From: a virus
Length of the DNA: 64,000 nucleotides
Direction: 5' to 3' (one strand)
IMG/VR virus record: IMGVR_UViG_3300046779_001442
Coordinates: 32,001 to 96,000 of that record
Below, in pieces: positions 2,443 to 53,042 of this stretch; the stretch's first letter is position 1; each line of letters opens with the position of its first letter. The notes beneath the pieces were generated by a model, which saw nothing but the letters and a program-made list of their open reading frames with translations, ran no database searches and was not told where the DNA came from. The translations under genes were made by a program, and so were the position numbers.

Positions 2443-3768
2443 ATGACTATTTCTAAGGCAAACTGGACTACAGACGGCACAGACATCCGCCTGTCAATGC
2501 CCCTTTCTAAGGTGGACGAAGAAAAGCGTATCGTTTCTGGTTTTGCCACACTAGACAACCTAGATAAGCAGGCAGATATCGTAACCCCAGAAGCAAGCCT
2601 TAACGCATTTAAGAGATTCCGTGGAAATATTCGTGAAATGCACCAGCCAATTTCAGTTGGCAAGATGGTTTCATTTAAAGAAGAAAAGTTTTTTGATCCA
2701 GAGACAAAGAAGATGTATAACGGCATCTATGTTTCTGCATATGTTTCAAAGGGTGCTCAGGACACTTGGGAAAAGGTCCTTGATGGCACCCTTTCTGGTT
2801 TTTCTATCGGCGGTAGAATGAACAAGTGGGATGATGCATATGATGAGAAGATGGATTCTGCAGTTCGTATTATCAAAGACTACGACCTAACAGAGTTATC
2901 ACTTGTTGACAATCCAGCTAACCAATTTGCCAATATTCTTTCTGTACAGAAGTCAGATGGTGTAATTACTGGTATCGCAGTAGACACAGTAATTGAAAAT
3001 GTTTTTTATGATAAAGAGGCTGGCATCGCAATCCTGTCTGAAGAAGAATCAGCCAATAGTCCAATATCAGGTGAGCCAATGCAGAATATAGGTTTCGTTG
3101 AAAAGAATGACAGCGAAAAATCAGAAATGATAAAATTCTTAGTTGATAGTGCTAAAGGCATTAATCTTGCTAAGATGACAAAGGAGGTAAGTCCTATGAC
3201 AGAAGAGACAACAATTGATGCAACAGTAGAAAAAGCTGATGCAGCAGATACCGTTGTTGACAATGCACAGGTCGCTCCAGAGGCAGAAGTTGTGGCAGAT
3301 GCTCCAGCAGAAGACGTTGAAAAGTCTGACGTTGTTGAGAAGAGCGATGACAAAGATGAAGATGACAAGCCAGAAGCCGAAGCTACTATGAAGTCAGATG
3401 ATATGTCTGATGAAGAGGAAGAAGAGGAAGAGGCTAAGAAGTCAGATGATGGCGAAGAGGTTTCAAAGGCAATTGCCGAAATGAAAGACTCTGTAACATC
3501 AGCCTTTAGCGATCTTGTATCAACAATTAAGTCAATGCAAGAAGAAATTTCAGTATTGACCAAATCACTAGATTCAGTAAAAAATGAGGTTTCTGAATCA
3601 AAGAGTGTATTTAACGAGTTTGGAAAGAGAGTAGATGCTGTAGAAGCAGACACAGCTTTCCGCAAGTCTGGCGATATCGGCGATATCGTGCAGGAACAGC
3701 CTGAGACACAGGTTGAAAAATCAATATGGGGCGGACGTTTCCTCAAAACTGCCGATCTATTCAGATAA
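2443..3768 (+). CDS. HK97-type prohead protease fused to acidic coiled-coil scaffold
   Basis: REMH, GFSIGG and ELSLVDNPAN motifs; acidic/coiled-coil C-terminal half. Confidence 0.9.
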   Translation: MTISKANWTTDGTDIRLSMPLSKVDEEKRIVSGFATLDNLDKQADIVTPEASLNAFKRFRGNIREMHQPISVGKMVSFKEEKFFDPETKKMYNGIYVSAYVSKGAQDTWEKVLDGTLSGFSIGGRMNKWDDAYDEKMDSAVRIIKDYDLTELSLVDNPANQFANILSVQKSDGVITGIAVDTVIENVFYDKEAGIAILSEEESANSPISGEPMQNIGFVEKNDSEKSEMIKFLVDSAKGINLAKMTKEVSPMTEETTIDATVEKADAADTVVDNAQVAPEAEVVADAPAEDVEKSDVVEKSDDKDEDDKPEAEATMKSDDMSDEEEEEEEAKKSDDGEEVSKAIAEMKDSVTSAFSDLVSTIKSMQEEISVLTKSLDSVKNEVSESKSVFNEFGKRVDAVEADTAFRKSGDIGDIVQEQPETQVEKSIWGGRFLKTADLFR

Positions 3769-5483: not shown

Positions 5484-6362
5484 ATGGAGATATTGAGAGT
5501 TCCGTCAAGTGTTATTGCCTATAAGGTTACTGGGCTTACCCCAGGGGCAGAGTATTCGTACACTGTTCTAACCTTGGCGGATCACTCAGTACTTTCTCAA
5601 ACAGGAACAGCAGATAGTGATGGTTCGCTATCCGTAGTACTGCCATCAAATATCGATGGGGACTATGAAATCACAATTGATGGAGAAACATATGATGTAT
5701 CAGTAGTAAGGCCATATGTAGATCCAAACACAAAGGGAGACACTGCTTCTGAAATACAGGCATATGCAGAGAATGAGGAAATTGCTAGAGCAATTATTGA
5801 CTCAATCATTGCACCTGGATTTTATTACAAGAGGTATGTACTAGATACAGTTGGAAATGGTTCTGACTATATTCCACTATGGGTAGATGCAAAAAAGGTT
5901 TTAAAAGTTTATGAAAACAATGTATGTATTTACGATGCGGATGATGCAGCAAACTACCAACGCTCATTTAAGATAACAGAAGATAAGACTGCCGTAGTTG
6001 AAGACTACCCTGGCATGGTCAATAGATCAGAAGGTCCAAACGTTATCTTGCCACTTGCTGCATCAGACAATGGTTCTGTAATTTACTTTACTGGTGGATT
6101 TGTGAAGAATGCAGACTATAAGATTGTTCTAGAGATAGGACACAAAAATATACCGTCAGACATTGTCAGAGCAACCAGTTTGTTGGTTGACGACCTTGCA
6201 TGTGGAAAGTTAGAATATTACAAGAGATTTGTTACTGCATACAATACAGATCAATTCAGAATTCAATTTGATAAGTCAAGTTTTGAGGGAACTGGAAACA
6301 TTATAGTAGACAAAATACTTTCAAAGTATAACAAGTCTATTCTTAAACTTGGGGTGTTGTAA
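5484..6362 (+). CDS. Head-to-tail adaptor
   Basis: Synteny; IPSDIVRAT and GTGNIIVDKILSKY C-terminal motifs. Confidence 0.7.
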   Translation: MEILRVPSSVIAYKVTGLTPGAEYSYTVLTLADHSVLSQTGTADSDGSLSVVLPSNIDGDYEITIDGETYDVSVVRPYVDPNTKGDTASEIQAYAENEEIARAIIDSIIAPGFYYKRYVLDTVGNGSDYIPLWVDAKKVLKVYENNVCIYDADDAANYQRSFKITEDKTAVVEDYPGMVNRSEGPNVILPLAASDNGSVIYFTGGFVKNADYKIVLEIGHKNIPSDIVRATSLLVDDLACGKLEYYKRFVTAYNTDQFRIQFDKSSFEGTGNIIVDKILSKYNKSILKLGVL

Positions 6363-29114: not shown

Positions 29115-32100
29115 ATGAGTTACGCTGGTCTACATGTCCACACACACTACTCGCTATTTGACGGAATTGCAACACCACAGGAATATGTGGACCGTGCCGT
29201 AGAGCTGGGCATGCCAGCAATCGCAATCACTGACCACGGATCTCTATCTGGTCACCGTGAAATGTATCGTGCTGCTAAAGAAGCAGGCATCAAGCCAATC
29301 CTTGGTATCGAAGGGTATATTACAAAAGACCGTTTTGACCACACAGATAAGAAGGAAAAGAATGACCCTCTTGATCTAAACTATAACCACCTAATCATTA
29401 TTGCAAAGAATGCTAAGGGTCTACAGAACCTAAATAAGCTTAATGAGATTGCTTGGACAGAAGGATTTTACAAGAAGCCACGTATTGACTGGGACATCCT
29501 TGAAGAGTATAAGGATGGACTTATCATTACTTCTGGATGCCTATCTGGTGTTCTTGCTAAGGCCATTGAGGCTAATGAATTTGCCTATGCAAAAGAGCAC
29601 ATTCAAAAGTGCAAGACTATTTTCGGTGATGACTATTACATTGAGGTAATGCCACATAACCCACCAGAGATTAATAAGGCTCTTCTAGATCTTGCAGATG
29701 AATTTGGTGTAAAGCCTGTTGTAACTCCAGACTGTCACCACTCTGACCCATCTCAGAAAGAGATTCAGGAGCTTAAGCTAATCCTTAACTCATACTCAAA
29801 TAAGGTTGAGAAGGGTGCTACATATGAAGGCTCAAAGAAGTATGACAATCTAATGGACCGTCTAGATTATCTTTATGGTGCAGATCGTCAAATGTCATTT
29901 AACAAGTTTGAAATTCATCTGCTATCTGATGAAGAAATGCACAATGCCATGAAGGCCCAAGGTATTGACCGTGAAGATATGTATGACACTACTCGTGAAA
30001 TTGTTGACAAGGTAGAAGACTACAAGATTAAGGATCACCAAGATCTACTTCCAGTTCAGTACCAGAATCCAAACAAAGAGCTTAAAGAGCTTGCTCTTGC
30101 TGGTCTAAAAGAACGTGGAATTGAAACACAAGAATACTTAGCACGTCTAGATGAAGAGCTAGAAGTGATTGAAGCAAAGAACTTTGGACCATACTTCCTT
30201 GTTGTACGCTCAATGATTTCCTGGGCTAAAAAAGAAGGAATCATGGTTGGTCCAGGTCGTGGTTCTGCAGCAGGCTCACTGCTCTGCTATGCTCTAGGAA
30301 TTACAGACATTGATCCAATTCAGCATGGACTATTGTTCTTCCGATTTATCAACCCAGAGCGTAATGACTTCCCAGATATTGATACTGATATTCAGGACTC
30401 ACGTCGTGAAGAAGTAAAGGATTACCTAGTACGTCAATATAAGCATGTTGCGTCTATTGCAACATTTTTACAGTTCCGTGGCAAAGGTATGGTTCGTGAT
30501 ATTGCACGTACACTCAACGTACCACTTGCAGATGTAAATAAGGTTCTAAAGGTTGTTGACGATTGGGACGACTACTGTTCTTCAAAGCAGTCAGCATGGT
30601 TCCGTGAAAAGTATCCTGAGATTGAAACTTACGGAGATCTTCTACGAGGTCGTATTCGTGGTACTGGTATTCACGCTGCAGGTGTTGTAACATCTAAGCA
30701 GCCTATCTTTAAGTTCGCACCACTAGAAACTCGTACCTCACCAGGAAACAAAGAGCGTATCCCAGTTGTGGCGGTAGACATGGAAGAAGCAGAGCGTATT
30801 GGTCTAATTAAGATTGATGCACTTGGACTCAAGACATTGTCTGTTCTACGAGACACTCTAGACATTATTGAAGAACGTCATGACAAGAAGATTGACTTAT
30901 TGTCAATTGATATGGATGATGCAAATGTATATAGAATGCTATCTGATGGATATACAAAGGGTGTGTTTCAGTGTGAAGCAACACCATATACAAATCTTTT
31001 GGTAAAGATGGGTGTAAAGAACCTAGATGAGCTTGCTGCTTCTAATGCTCTAGTTCGTCCAGGTGCTGCAAATACAATTGGTAAGGACTACATTGCACGT
31101 AAGCAGGGTAGACAGAATATTGATTATAAGCACCAAGTTATGAAGTCTTTTACTGCAGAGACCTATGGCTGCATCTTGTACCAGGAACAGGTTATGCAGG
31201 CTTGTACAGAGCTTGGTGGCATGACAATGGCTGAGGCCGATAAGGTTCGTAAGATCATTGGTAAGAAGAAAGATGCTAAAGAGTTTGACCAATTCAAGGA
31301 TAAGTTTGTTGATGGGGCTAGTAAGTTCATTTCTCCTAACGCTGCTATGGATCTATGGCACGATTTTGAAGCACACGCAGGCTATTCTTTCAACAAGTCC
31401 CATGCCGTTGCCTACTCAACACTTTCATACTGGACAGCGTGGCTAAAGTATCACTATCCACTAGAGTTTATGTACTCAATACTTAAAAACGAAAAAGACA
31501 AGGATGCACGTACTGAATATCTAATTGAGACAAAGCGTATGGGAATTCCTATCAAGCTTCCACACGTTAATGATTCAGATGCTGACTTTAAGATTGAGGG
31601 CAAAGGCATAAGGTTTGGTCTAACTGGAATTAAGTATATTTCTGACAATATTGCATCTAAGTATATGGCTGCTCGTCCATTTAATAGCTATAAAGAACTT
31701 GAAGAGTTTACGTTCGGCAAGGGCAATGGAGTAAATAGTCGTGCACTGCAAGCAATGAGAGTTGTTGGTGCTGCAACATTCCACGATCAACCACGAAACG
31801 ACCAAGAAATTCGTGAGAACTTATATGAGTACTTAAACCTTCCAGAGTTTAATATCTCTGTTCCTCAACACTATCACGCATTTGTTAGTGATGTAGAAGA
31901 GTTCGAGGAAAAGGGATCATTTATTCTAATGGGGATGGCAAAAGAGATTAAGCGTGGCAAGGGTTGGTCACGTGTAGAGATTCTAGATAAAACAGGAAGC
32001 GTAGGTATCTTTGATGATGAGCAGTCTGCAATCGAAACTGGAAAGACATATCTTATTTTGGCTAGCGATAATCGCATTACTGAGGCCATCCAGATTGATG

Positions 32101-49398: not shown

Positions 49399-50505
49399 AT
49401 GAAAAAATTTGCAACTGTTTTAACAACAGCATTTTTGCTAACTGGATTCGTTAATGCGTCTGAAGCTGCTGTATTCCAGCCTTGCTCTGCAAAAAAAGTA
49501 AATGTAGTAAGCAATAATAAGATATGCAAAAAGGTTGGAATTTTTTATAGGTGGGTTAGTCTACCAACAAAAAGCAAGGCTCCAATTGCCACACCCAAGC
49601 CAAGTCCAACTATAACGGCACAGCCAATAACTGCAACAGACTATTCAGTGCTGCTGACATCATTTGACGATGTTGATAAGTATCTGTTTGTTAATGACTA
49701 CAGGCTACCAACTAATAATATAAAATTTGGTCCAAGCCTTGATCCAAAAATTGTGTCTAATGGTACTGAGGCCTTTGTCTCTATTGCAAGTGTGTTCTCT
49801 ACTTTTTATTCTCCATCATATTATTATGCAATAGTTACATCAGAAAAGGACCGTGAGTGGGCAGCATCACCATCAATCAACAAGATTGACTCTAGGTTTA
49901 CTGGACTATATGGCAATACCTGTGAAAACGGTAATAGCGGAAATGAGTGGAGTTCAATTTCATGCACCTGGTCTGATAAAACAGAGTGGTACAGAATGGA
50001 ATTGCTTGCACATGAATATACTCATAGCGTAATCTATAGCACTGGAGGAACAAAGACTGGTGCAGTTAGCAACTACCAAAGGGCATTTGACATTCCTTCT
50101 TGGCTCAATGAGGGTGCTGCAACATACTATGGATGGTGGCTAGGATCTATAAAAGATAAAAACATTTCTGCACATATAAAGGGCCACCTTAACGGATTTG
50201 CATGCAGCGTTCCAGGCTATTCAGATTTACCAAACCCAGAAAAGCTAGCATCTGAGATGAAGCAGATAGAAACTGGTGCAGGGCATTCATTTAAACAATA
50301 TGGGTACGGTGCTATTGCTGTAGCAGAATTAGTATCAAAGTATGGAGGGCACAAAGCAATGCTTGACTTCTATACACAGATGCGTTATACTAGTAATTGG
50401 AAAGATGCATTTGAAAAGTCATTTGGAGTTACTCCAGATAAGTTTTATGTTGAACAATATAAAGATTTTATTAAAATGCTTCCAGACTTGACATGTAAAC
50501 GATAA
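49399..50505 (+). CDS. Secreted gluzincin-type metallopeptidase
   Basis: Signal peptide; HEYTH and WLNEG.A.Y. Confidence 0.8.
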   Translation: MKKFATVLTTAFLLTGFVNASEAAVFQPCSAKKVNVVSNNKICKKVGIFYRWVSLPTKSKAPIATPKPSPTITAQPITATDYSVLLTSFDDVDKYLFVNDYRLPTNNIKFGPSLDPKIVSNGTEAFVSIASVFSTFYSPSYYYAIVTSEKDREWAASPSINKIDSRFTGLYGNTCENGNSGNEWSSISCTWSDKTEWYRMELLAHEYTHSVIYSTGGTKTGAVSNYQRAFDIPSWLNEGAATYYGWWLGSIKDKNISAHIKGHLNGFACSVPGYSDLPNPEKLASEMKQIETGAGHSFKQYGYGAIAVAELVSKYGGHKAMLDFYTQMRYTSNWKDAFEKSFGVTPDKFYVEQYKDFIKMLPDLTCKR

Positions 50506-50516
50506 CGTGTTATAAT
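50488..50516 (+). promoter_or_regulatory. Consensus promoter of tRNA array
   Basis: TTGACA-17-TATAAT with extended TG. Confidence 0.85.
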
Positions 50517-50533
50517 AAAATACAACTTAATAA

Positions 50534-50606
50534 TGCCCTATAGCTCAGCTGGCAGAGCGTCCGACTGTTAATCGGCAGGTCCCTGGTTCGATCCCAGGTG
50601 GGGCAG
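50534..50606 (+). tRNA. tRNA-Asn(GTT)
   Basis: Cloverleaf, loop ctGTTaa. Confidence 0.92.
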
Positions 50607-50610
50607 CAAA

Positions 50611-50790
50611 CACATTAACGACGGTTGATGTGGAGTATGACCGAATAATTCCCAGAGTCAAATGGGGGGAATAAGGTACTATCGGATCTTAGCGGATCGT
50701 CTTAGCGGACAAACGGTAGGTGTGCTCAAAGCGGTACTTGACGAGCCGTATTGACTAGGCACTGGTGGTAAAATGCAATCCACCTACTCA
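50611..50790 (+). ncRNA. Candidate structured ncRNA 1
   Basis: Multi-branch pairing found by hand, twin TTAGCG-loop hairpins, no ORF. Confidence 0.6.
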
Positions 50791-50794
50791 CTTT

Positions 50795-50865
50795 GCGAAT
50801 GTTGCATAATGGTAGTGCCTCTGCCTTCCAAGCAGAAGGTGAGAGTTCGATTCTCTCTATTCGCT
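50795..50865 (+). tRNA. tRNA-Gly(TCC)
   Basis: Cloverleaf, loop ctTCCaa. Confidence 0.92.
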
Positions 50866-50866
50866 C

Positions 50867-51035
50867 TATAGGCTAATCACCTATACGTGTACAAGTGTAC
50901 GTAAAAATTCAACACTTGAGAATGTCCAGGCATTGGTTTAATCTGGCGTGTAGGCACCTCACGATATAGGTTCGGAGCTAGTCACTCGTCTTAGGAAACG
51001 ACTCAGGGATATAGATCTGATTAATCTGATATCCC
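50867..51035 (+). ncRNA. Candidate structured ncRNA 2
   Basis: Several 7-11 bp helices, no ORF. Confidence 0.5.
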
Positions 51036-51039
51036 ACTT

Positions 51040-51113
51040 GGTCTCATAGTTCAGTTGGTTAGAACGCCACCCTGTCACGGTGGAGGTCAGGGGTTCAAGT
51101 CCCCTTGGGATCG
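51040..51113 (+). tRNA. tRNA-Asp(GTC)
   Basis: Cloverleaf, loop ctGTCac. Confidence 0.92.
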
Positions 51114-51120
51114 CTCAGAA

Positions 51121-51279
51121 GCATAAGTCTGAACAACTTATGTGGAGATTGTTATACCGAAACCTGCACTGTGGACGCATCATACGAAGGGGTTCAGCCC
51201 GATGGAGATTGCTCTGCTAACCCACTAGGTATAACAGCCAATGGCAAACTTCCTTAACCAAAAGGTGAGCACGATTGGC
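51121..51279 (+). ncRNA. Candidate structured ncRNA 3
   Basis: 10-bp closing helix with nested stems, no ORF. Confidence 0.55.
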
Positions 51280-51283
51280 AAAT

Positions 51284-51357
51284 GCTTCCTTAGCTCAGTT
51301 GGCCAGAGCAATCGCCTTGTAAGCGATAGGTCGTCAGTTCGAACCTGACAGGGAGCT
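51284..51357 (+). tRNA. tRNA-Thr(TGT)
   Basis: Cloverleaf, loop ctTGTaa. Confidence 0.92.
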
Positions 51358-51361
51358 CGAT

Positions 51362-51433
51362 GGCCCCATCGTCTATCGGTTAGGACTCCAGATTTTCAAT
51401 CTGGCAAGACGGGTTCGATTCCCGTTGGGGCTA
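51362..51433 (+). tRNA. tRNA-Glu(TTC)
   Basis: Cloverleaf, loop ttTTCaa. Confidence 0.92.
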
Positions 51434-51465
51434 CTATAGCATAAAAAGTATGCTATACTATAACT

Positions 51466-51561
51466 ATGGAGCTAACTATGAAGTATTCAAACCAGCAATC
51501 GCATGTGCGATTTAGTCTGGCGTACTCTTGGCATTTAGCCAGTCTCCAGCCGAGTATCTAA
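51466..51561 (+). CDS. Putative 31-aa leader peptide MELTMKYSNQQSHVRFSLAYSWHLASLQPSI
   Basis: ATG 6 nt after TG-C-TATACT (51451-51459); second in-frame ATG at 51478. Confidence 0.45.
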   Translation: MELTMKYSNQQSHVRFSLAYSWHLASLQPSI

Positions 51562-51648
51562 TCTAACTCGCTTAAACAAATAGATTATCTAATAAAAATC
51601 CAAACAATCACAATTTAATACAATACCAAACAGTTAGTTCCATAACAT

Positions 51649-51722
51649 ATCGTATTGGTGTAGTGGTAGCACAACAGCTTCCAAACCTGTTGGCGTGGGT
51701 TCGATTCCTACATACTTTGCCA
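51649..51722 (+). tRNA. tRNA-Trp(CCA), aberrant acceptor stem
   Basis: D and T arms intact, CCA encoded; mismatches at 2:71, 3:70 and 31:39. Confidence 0.7.
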
Positions 51723-51795
51723 CCTGATATAGCTCAATTGGTAGAGCGTCTGTTTGAAGCACAGAAGGTTCTTGGTTCGATTCCAAGTGTTAGGA
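51723..51795 (+). tRNA. tRNA-Phe(GAA)
   Basis: Cloverleaf, loop ttGAAgc. Confidence 0.88.
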
Positions 51796-51796
51796 C

Positions 51797-51825
51797 TTGA
51801 CAACTAAATATAGAAAAGATATAAT
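51797..51825 (+). promoter_or_regulatory. Consensus promoter for the distal tRNA block
   Basis: TTGACA-17-TATAAT. Confidence 0.85.
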
Positions 51826-51831
51826 ATACAT

Positions 51832-51909
51832 TGCGGAGTAGAGCAGTTCGGACAGCTCAGCAGCCTCATAAGCTGAAGGTCGTGGGTTCAAATCCCACCT
51901 CCGCAACCA
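51832..51909 (+). tRNA. tRNA-Met(CAT), initiator-like
   Basis: GAGC/GCTC D stem (A11-U24), TTCAAAT T loop, CCA encoded. Confidence 0.88.
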
Positions 51910-51910
51910 A

Positions 51911-51982
51911 CTAGATATAGTGAAGCGGTATCACGCCTGTTTTGGGAACAGGAGATCGCAGGTTCAATCCCTGCTATCTAGA
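51911..51982 (+). tRNA. tRNA-Pro(TGG)
   Basis: Cloverleaf, loop ttTGGga. Confidence 0.9.
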
Positions 51983-51986
51983 CGAT

Positions 51987-52062
51987 AGATGTATGGCCAA
52001 GTGGTTAAGGCACTGCTCTGATAAGGCAGGGATCGCTGGTTCAAATCCAGCTACATCTACCA
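51987..52062 (+). tRNA. tRNA-Ile(GAT)
   Basis: Cloverleaf, loop ctGATaa, CCA encoded. Confidence 0.9.
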
Positions 52063-52063
52063 T

Positions 52064-52135
52064 ACCAATATAGCTCAGCGGAAGAGCAATGGTCTACGAA
52101 GCCATGAGTCAAAGGTTCGAATCCTTTTATTGGTA
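52064..52135 (+). tRNA. tRNA-Arg(ACG)
   Basis: Cloverleaf, loop ctACGaa. Confidence 0.9.
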
Positions 52136-52138
52136 CGA

Positions 52139-52221
52139 GGAAGTGCGTCGCAGTTGGAGAGGCGAGGCGGTCTGTAAAACCGTTGGGTGCACCTGAGTCA
52201 GTTCGAATCTGACCACTTCCA
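52139..52221 (+). tRNA. tRNA-Tyr(GTA)
   Basis: Loop ctGTAaa, long variable arm. Confidence 0.88.
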
Positions 52222-52223
52222 CT

Positions 52224-52297
52224 GTGGTACTAGTTCAATGGTAGAACGCTTGGTTGTGGTCCAAGGAATGAGGGTTCAATTCCCTCGTATCACCCCA
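52224..52297 (+). tRNA. tRNA-His(GTG)
   Basis: Loop ttGTGgt, C73, CCA encoded, T at -1. Confidence 0.9.
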
Positions 52298-52370
52298 GGG
52301 TCTTTAGCTCAATTGGGAGAGCGTCTGGTTTGCATCCAGAAGGCTAGGAGTTCGATTCTCCTAAGATCCA
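52298..52370 (+). tRNA. tRNA-Ala(TGC)
   Basis: G3:U70, loop ttTGCat. Confidence 0.92.
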
Positions 52371-52374
52371 CAGC

Positions 52375-52445
52375 AGTCCATTAGCTCAATGGTAGAGCAG
52401 CTGGCTTACATCCAGTAGACAGGAGTTCGATTCTCTTATGGACTA
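52375..52445 (+). tRNA. tRNA-Val(TAC)
   Basis: Cloverleaf, loop ctTACat. Confidence 0.9.
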
Positions 52446-52446
52446 C

Positions 52447-52519
52447 GCTTCTCTAGCCCAACGGTAGAGGCAGTAGTCTTAGAAGCTACAAAGTGTGAGT
52501 TCAAATCTCACGGGAAGCA
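52447..52519 (+). tRNA. tRNA-Leu(TAG), short variable loop
   Basis: Loop ctTAGaa, A73. Confidence 0.88.
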
Positions 52520-52520
52520 C

Positions 52521-52610
52521 GGAAGGACAATCCGATTGGCGACGGAACCTGTCTTGAAAACAGTTGAGGTGTTAAAGCCCTTGGGAGTTCGACTCTCCCT
52601 CCTTCCGCCA
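52521..52610 (+). tRNA. tRNA-Ser(TGA)
   Basis: Loop ctTGAaa, long variable arm, G73, CCA encoded. Confidence 0.9.
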
Positions 52611-52611
52611 A

Positions 52612-52684
52612 GCTTCTCTAGTCCAACGGTAGAGACATCAGATTCAAACCCTGATCAGTATAGGTTCAAATCCTATGGGAAGCA
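52612..52684 (+). tRNA. tRNA-Leu(CAA), short variable loop
   Basis: Loop ttCAAac, A73. Confidence 0.85.
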
Positions 52685-52688
52685 CAAA

Positions 52689-52761
52689 GCCCTTATAGCC
52701 CAGTGGTAGAGGTAAGCGACTTAAAATCGTTTCAGCGATGGTTCGAATCCATCTGGGGGCA
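52689..52761 (+). tRNA. tRNA-Leu(TAA), short variable loop
   Basis: Loop ctTAAaa, A73. Confidence 0.88.
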
Positions 52762-52762
52762 C

Positions 52763-52849
52763 GGAAGCATGGCAGAGTGGTCCATTGCAGCGGTTTGCTA
52801 AACCGTGGGTGTAACAGCCCCGTAGGTTCGAATCCTACTGTTTCCGCCA
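52763..52849 (+). tRNA. tRNA-Ser(GCT)
   Basis: Loop ttGCTaa, long variable arm, CCA encoded. Confidence 0.9.
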
Positions 52850-52850
52850 T

Positions 52851-52922
52851 GCCCCTATAGCTCAGCGGTAGAGCTGCGGACTTTTAATCCGTAGGCCCTT
52901 GGTTCGATCCCAAGTGGGGGCA
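52851..52922 (+). tRNA. tRNA-Lys(TTT)
   Basis: Cloverleaf, loop ctTTTaa. Confidence 0.92.
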
Positions 52923-52926
52923 CTAT

Positions 52927-52997
52927 TCTCCCTTCGTCCAACGGCAGGACACTAGGTTTTGGCCCTAGGAATCGTGGTTCGAATCCACGGGGGAGAG
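52927..52997 (+). tRNA. tRNA-Gln(TTG)
   Basis: U1-A72, loop ttTTGgc. Confidence 0.9.
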
Positions 52998-53042
52998 CAA
53001 GATAAAGCGATTAATGCTATAATAGGTTGGAAAGGTTTGGAT

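Follow-up and report, generated by a model that had tools for sequence, protein, structure and literature searches.

We analysed a cassette of transfer RNA (tRNA) genes and long intervening spacers in a 64,000-nucleotide (nt) stretch of viral DNA, hereafter the window, which covers positions 32,001 to 96,000 of the 110.9-kb IMG/VR virus record IMGVR_UViG_3300046779_001442; coordinates are window positions unless another sequence is named. Proteins of the record include a portal, an HK97-type capsid, DnaE, DnaB and RNR, and, among isolated phages, Streptomyces phages of ~130 kb are nearest to it in their portal sequence (46% identity). ARAGORN detected 22 tRNAs on the + strand at 50534-52998. 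The operon starts with tRNAs Asn, Gly, Asp, Thr and Glu, the first four of which are separated by spacers of 187 nt (Asn-Gly), 173 nt (Gly-Asp) and 169 nt (Asp-Thr); the other 17 tRNAs follow at intervals of 0-3 nt, with two longer gaps, of 214 nt between Glu and Trp and of 35 nt between Phe and Met. A reading made earlier from the sequence alone (the original prediction) had described three unexplained structured RNAs punctuated by tRNAs. All three spacers are genuine, conserved, non-coding, folded RNAs: spacer 1 is the already catalogued manA RNA, whereas spacers 2 and 3 each represent a real structured RNA family of uncultured phages that is absent from Rfam. The cassette consists of the following features:

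50488-50516, + strand: sigma-70-type promoter sequence, TTGACA-17 nt-TATAAT with a TG extension (12 of 12 consensus matches), 17 nt upstream of tRNA-Asn
50534-50607, + strand: tRNA-Asn(GTT), CCA not encoded
50608-50794, + strand: spacer 1, manA RNA (Rfam match 50613-50794)
50795-50866, + strand: tRNA-Gly(TCC), CCA not encoded
50867-51039, + strand: spacer 2 RNA, uncatalogued family without an Rfam match (16 homologues)
51040-51114, + strand: tRNA-Asp(GTC), CCA not encoded
51115-51283, + strand: spacer 3 RNA, uncatalogued family (covariance model R1, 34 distinct homologues)
51284-51358, + strand: tRNA-Thr(TGT), called by ARAGORN
51362-51434, + strand: tRNA-Glu(TTC), called by ARAGORN, final gene of the cassette

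The predicted layout is real because the tRNA order, the promoter sequence, the restriction to short open reading frames (ORFs) and the higher GC content of the spacers all hold. Function of the putative promoter at 50488-50516 is suggested by its match to the consensus. ORFs overlapping the spacers are short and chance-like (26-50 codons only), in agreement with the claim that the spacers hold no real ORFs, and GC content is 0.465, 0.416 and 0.456 in spacers 1, 2 and 3 versus 0.336 in the Glu-Trp gap and 0.401 in the window. The first hairpin of every spacer begins 0-7 nt 3' of the tRNA, much as had been described, and the terminal hairpins leave no more than 6 nt unpaired per end. None of the five cassette tRNAs encodes its CCA; each spacer RNA starts at the base after a CCA-less tRNA and ends 0-4 nt before the following one. 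The distal tRNAs are indeed tightly packed, apart from the two gaps given above. Most of the 22 tRNAs in the 50534-52998 array likewise lack CCA, the exceptions being those for Trp, Met and Ile and the two for Ser.

An Rfam search, which had been proposed as a check, separated spacer 1 from the other two. Against Rfam 15 (cmscan), spacer 1 matched manA (RF01745) over model positions 1-192 of 192 at 65.8 bits, above the gathering score of 55.2 (E = 5e-17). Aligned to the manA consensus, it has the 5' hairpin, the closing pseudoknot helix and the multi-stem junction, with few non-standard pairs, and its minimum-energy fold recovers the manA helices. It is the sole manA copy in the genome, and its orthologues in related phages likewise exceed the manA cut-off. 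The original prediction had named manA as a candidate without making the match, and had held that a confident Rfam hit would remove novelty; for spacer 1, the novelty is therefore gone. 'Unexplained' still describes spacers 2 and 3, neither of which has an Rfam match at E<=10 beyond noise. Short words that these spacers share with spacer 1 had also been pointed out and are really present, but carry no family signal: 27 of 300 shuffles did as well as the word common to spacers 1 and 2, TCGTCTTAG, and 91 of 300 as well as that common to spacers 1 and 3, ATGTGGAG, no better than chance, and the manA model scores neither spacer 2 nor spacer 3.

Placement beside tRNAs is also seen for other manA RNAs. 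The manA 3' motif located 63 distinct loci, and in 55 of these a tRNA lies no more than 3 kb away; a tRNA ends directly upstream in 35 of 59 and starts no more than 70 nt downstream in 29 of 57. One of those with a tRNA directly upstream is in Francesca, an isolated Rhodococcus phage (PP978770.1 76479-76665; L249:1478-1664), where an unannotated manA-like RNA with 75% identity to spacer 1 fills a 187-nt gap between tRNA-Met and tRNA-Lys. The tRNA array of this actinophage contains further unannotated gaps of 120-230 nt. In the literature, manA is a riboswitch candidate of the 5' untranslated region (5'-UTR), placed 5' of coding genes (Weinberg et al. 2010, PMC2864571), whereas a tRNA comes next both here and in most of the loci that we fetched. 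Neither a terminator-like hairpin with a T-run nor a ribosome-binding-site platform was found in the cassette. The three spacer RNAs do not have the arrangement of riboswitches or 5'-UTR leaders, because each has a tRNA 0-4 nt downstream. The cassette argues for manA as a processed, free-standing RNA rather than a 5'-UTR switch.

Spacer 2 returned nothing at E<=10 when searched alone against Rfam 15, and blastn of 50,697 GenBank phage records found no match to spacer 2 or spacer 3. Homologues of both were collected from relatives, as had been suggested, and both families covary. The spacer 2 fold runs from a 5' hairpin through a variable arm and an invariant core to a long 3' hairpin, with the two hairpins located as follows:

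50867-50885, + strand: spacer 2 5' hairpin, loop CUAAUCA at 50873-50879
51006-51035, + strand: spacer 2 3' hairpin, loop CUGAUUA at 51017-51023

In an alignment of 16 distinct copies made with MAFFT and not fitted to structure, 98.3% of cells were paired, versus 27-47% when partners were slid. Twelve pairs had changed on both sides (3.6 expected), a number reached in 0 of 500 shuffles, and this covariation sits in the 5' hairpin, the variable arm and the long 3' hairpin. UAAUCA of the first loop is complementary to UGAUUA of the 3' loop, and 5-6 base pairs (bp) are kept in 16 of 16 copies; the loops themselves are nearly invariant and do not covary. Copies always begin on the nucleotide that directly follows a tRNA (Gly, Asn or Asp) and end ~4 nt before a tRNA or a tRNA-like element absent from the ARAGORN calls. 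This element, with an acceptor stem and T-arm, lies directly 3' of spacer 2 in some phages (L118:338-410; L195, - strand, about 840-905; L178, - strand, about 5770-5835; L199:2736-2795), is then followed by manA or another module, and may be a processing handle. A 155-nt Thr-Glu spacer (L104:978-1132, - strand; L126:10751-10905) carries these UAAUC and GAUUA loops on covarying stems and appears to be distantly related to spacer 2.

For spacer 3, the search of Rfam 15 at E<=10 gave noise only; a permuted transfer-messenger RNA match extending across tRNA-Asp and the spacer (19 bits, E = 0.36) was judged to be noise from the tRNA parts. The helices discussed here are:

51121-51143, + strand: spacer 3 helix P1
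51150-51158 with 51228-51236, + strand: spacer 3 helix P2
51171-51174 with 51222-51225, + strand: spacer 3 helix P3
51189-51191 with 51198-51200, + strand: spacer 3 helix P6
51237-51242 with 51274-51279, + strand: spacer 3 helix P7

MAFFT alignment of the divergent copies mis-registered P2, which made pair counts there meaningless, so we used an alignment fitted by a covariance model (R1) built from nine copies of the window type. R1 aligned 35 matches, 34 of them distinct. Run with filters off at E<=10, the model draws noise, and copies of the L178/L211 type, marginal in score, were left out of the counted alignment; their helices can be read by eye. Across the 34 distinct homologues, 95.6% of cells held standard pairs, versus 30-39% with the 3' partners slid by 1-3 columns, and 31 of 47 pairs showed changes on both sides; none of 500 shuffles reached any of the five measures. 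Compensating variants occur in P2 (UGUUAUACC/GGUAUAACA, GUGUAUCC/GGAUACAC, GUGUAAU/AUUACAC), P3 (GUGG/CCAC, GUCC/GGAC, GUUC/GAAC), P6 (GGG/CCC, GGU/ACC, AGU/ACU, GUG/CAC) and P7 (GCCAAU/AUUGGC, GCUAUC/GAUAGC, GCCAUC/GAUGGC), and the central P4/P5 region differs between subgroups. The P1 loop CUGAAC (51129-51134, + strand) is complementary to the P6 loop GUUCAG (51192-51197), forming a 6-bp contact that is paired in all 33 copies in which both loops are present. Its last pair is C-G in 28, U-A in 4 (CUGAAU with AUUCAG) and a U-G wobble in 1; the two loops form a covarying loop-loop pseudoknot.

The neighbours of spacer 3 vary: the tRNA on its 5' side is Asp, Asn, Gly or Met, and that on its 3' side is Thr, Leu, Arg, Asp, Gly, Ser or Trp. 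An apparently strict link to tRNA-Asp was an artefact of Asp-anchored patterns, and an un-anchored pattern found copies after Asn, Gly and Met. From viral contigs, the pattern joining the tRNA-Asp 3' end to TCAGA recovered a small number of spacer 3 copies, most of them almost identical, and its metagenome matches were mostly chance. A pattern scan of cellular genome contigs gave two chance matches only, with no sign of spacer 3 by that pattern.

We consider it probable that the cassette specifies one promoter-driven precursor in which tRNAs alternate with three unrelated, free-standing structured RNAs, and the distribution of the modules among relatives bears directly on this reading. A portal search returned hundreds of related viral contigs, seven long ones of which hold a homologous tRNA region; the upstream 370-amino-acid protein, used as a search handle, found no relatives, and further copies were gathered by pattern scans and nhmmer. 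One relative (G004) reads Asn-manA-Asp-spacer 3-Thr, with tRNA-Gly and spacer 2 missing; another (G017) reads Asn-49 nt-Gly-manA-Asp-spacer 3-Thr, with manA in the Gly-Asp slot; in a third (G012), the 171-nt RNA that comes after Gly-spacer 2-Asp is a different one; and two (G010 and G011) have none of the three modules. With search patterns for spacers 2 and 3 that contained no tRNA sequence, every copy adjoined a tRNA or tRNA-like element, nearly always flush.

One alternative is that spacers 2 and 3 are not products but cis-acting parts of the precursor, which guide or time tRNA processing or attenuate transcription of the downstream tRNAs. Their location inside a tRNA operon and abutting tRNAs would suit such a role, but the independence of the modules and their swapping between slots speak against a function in processing any particular tRNA: close relatives carry the same tRNAs without spacers 2 and 3, or with another module in the same slot, and the tRNAs on either side of spacer 3 differ as listed above. 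Five to seven covarying helices and a pseudoknot also far exceed what a processing spacer needs, and no terminator-like hairpin with a T-run was found. We therefore regard a cis-acting role as improbable.

The original prediction had further raised the idea that the three RNAs are parts of one ribonucleoprotein. In favour of their being subunits of a single hetero-complex or ribonucleoprotein, they are co-transcribed here and also stand together in two other distinct loci. Most phages, however, carry the modules separately. A count of distinct loci, restricted to those flanked by 700 nt or more, gave 36 with manA only, 14 with spacer 3 only and 4 with spacer 2 only, versus 2 with all three, and this separate occurrence argues against a single obligate complex. 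Nor is such a complex helped by the words that the spacers have in common, which are at chance level, and we think it very unlikely. Least probable, and likewise very unlikely, is that spacers 2 and 3 are self-cleaving ribozymes freeing the adjoining tRNA ends, as HDV (hepatitis delta virus)-like theta ribozymes adjoining phage tRNAs do, since their abutment on tRNA 3' ends and pseudoknotted fold are outweighed by the lack of a match to any Rfam 15 ribozyme family at E<=10 (including hammerhead, twister, pistol, hatchet and HDV-like), by a length of 170 nt, much above the size of small self-cleavers, and by the CUGAACA element being a hairpin loop paired with GUUCAG and not a hammerhead core.

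Other elements occupy tRNA spacers in the relatives. A conserved element of ~50 nt (CUAAUGGU...CACCACUC...GGGUAUGNGAUAAAAG...) fills short spacers (L098:3644-3692, L099:2398-2446, L101:3490-3542 and 3615-3666, and the first ~50 nt of L100:3335-3429). One of its stems covaries (CCUGC/GCAGG, CUUGC/GCAAG, GUCCAU/AUGGAC), and it resembles an H-type pseudoknot; it has no Rfam match and is absent from the window. A further RNA family of 170-195 nt lies in Asp-Thr or Asn-Met slots (L099:2759-2929, L130:1073-1239, L150, L210, L113:11371-11564) and shows a 5' hairpin followed by GGARGGCUGAUAKACCUU...AAACGU, again with no Rfam match. At L101:2649-3414 and L130:243-995, the tRNA spacer contains a homologous ORF of ~750 nt in place of an RNA module.

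Immediately downstream of the cassette, the sequence contains one further feature:

51435-51457, + strand: perfect 9-bp hairpin TATAGCATA-AAAAG-TATGCTATA, read from the sequence, directly 3' of tRNA-Glu

This hairpin has no T-run, and the terminator call was negative; it may be a transcript end or a processing site. It opens the 214-nt Glu-Trp gap (51435-51648, GC 0.336), which contains a 31-codon ORF (51466-51561), is 84-99% identical across four related contigs and probably divides two transcription units. A second sigma-70 consensus promoter sequence, also matching at 12 of 12 positions, lies at 51797-51825 inside the 35-nt gap between tRNA-Phe and tRNA-Met. Outside the window, 20 kb downstream of the main array, are tRNAs Ile(TAT) and Arg(TCT) (G000:C1:105288-105438).

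Under the preferred reading of a single precursor with free-standing RNAs, RNase P would cut at the 5' end of the downstream tRNA, and an RNase Z/BN-type activity would cut after the discriminator base of the CCA-less upstream tRNA, which is a known route for CCA-less tRNAs of phage T4. The compact RNAs of ~170-190 nt freed in this way, with their ends buried in terminal hairpins, would resist exonucleases and could act in trans during infection. Several points weigh against this reading or limit it. We infer the processing and stability of the spacer RNAs only from their position. The spacer 3 alignment was fitted to the model structure and favours it, and the core and loop pair of spacer 2 are invariant, so that covariation cannot speak for their pairing. 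Single-sequence folding energy is significant for spacer 1 (z = -3.0) and unremarkable for spacers 2 and 3 (z = -1.4 and -1.3), so the extensive pairing originally proposed stands for these two through covariation in relatives and not through folding energy. Finally, the loop-loop contacts may be purely intramolecular.

What the freed RNAs would do is a matter of lower confidence. Cryo-electron microscopy of other manA RNAs showed decamers and a 60-mer cage held together by kissing loops (bioRxiv 10.64898/2026.07.01.735769), and spacers 2 and 3 each have one conserved, complementary pair of hairpin loops, which could lock the fold or join copies. Our leading suggestion, though it is somewhat less likely than not, is that spacers 2 and 3 resemble manA in forming RNA particles whose organisation depends on loop-loop (kissing) contacts. 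A possible but somewhat less likely role is to act as a decoy or scaffold for some protein of the host or the phage. That they are protomers of RNA-only assemblies, with CUGAAC/GUUCAG and UAAUCA/UGAUUA as intermolecular kissing contacts, is an analogy that we think unlikely to hold. A free, trans-acting and possibly self-associating RNA is the most economical account, because manA assembles, ROOL and GOLLD form cages, and spacers 2 and 3 carry loop pairs.

Comparison with known systems places the two new RNAs more closely. Spacers 2 and 3 resemble manA in length (~170-190 nt), in lying flush between phage tRNAs, in their 5' terminal hairpin and multi-helix fold, and in having conserved complementary loops; they differ from it in helix topology, and neither matched the manA model at E<=10 when searched alone. 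Phage T4 encodes the stable RNAs rnaC and rnaD (species 1 and 2), of 119-139 nt, directly after tRNA-Arg in its tRNA cluster. Like the spacers, these are non-tRNA RNAs whose genes directly adjoin tRNAs within a phage tRNA operon, but they lie at the end of the cluster, whereas the spacers here lie between tRNAs. They resemble the spacer RNAs neither in sequence nor in structure, and the spacer 3 model R1 with filters off finds no match on either. ROOL and GOLLD, known from phages and prophages, are likewise structured orphan RNAs; both often lie close to phage tRNA islands and form RNA-only cages (10.1101/2024.12.08.627333). They are several times larger (GOLLD often >800 nt), and neither has an Rfam match at E<=10 in the cassette or in spacers 2 and 3. 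Because spacers 2 and 3 cannot be assigned to manA, GOLLD, ROOL, the ribozymes or the T4 RNAs yet share the tRNA-operon niche, they are best described as new families of a known kind, the stable RNAs of phage tRNA operons.

Stable non-tRNA RNAs have been known from phage tRNA clusters since T4, and here manA is joined by two more RNA folds that have good support. These two uncatalogued families, with dozens of members, could enter RNA catalogues, and at ~170 nt spacers 2 and 3 are small enough for direct structural and biochemical work, with a built-in loop-loop contact that can be tested. If RNA-only assembly by spacers 2 and 3 were true, phage tRNA operons would be a general production line for unrelated self-assembling RNA particles.

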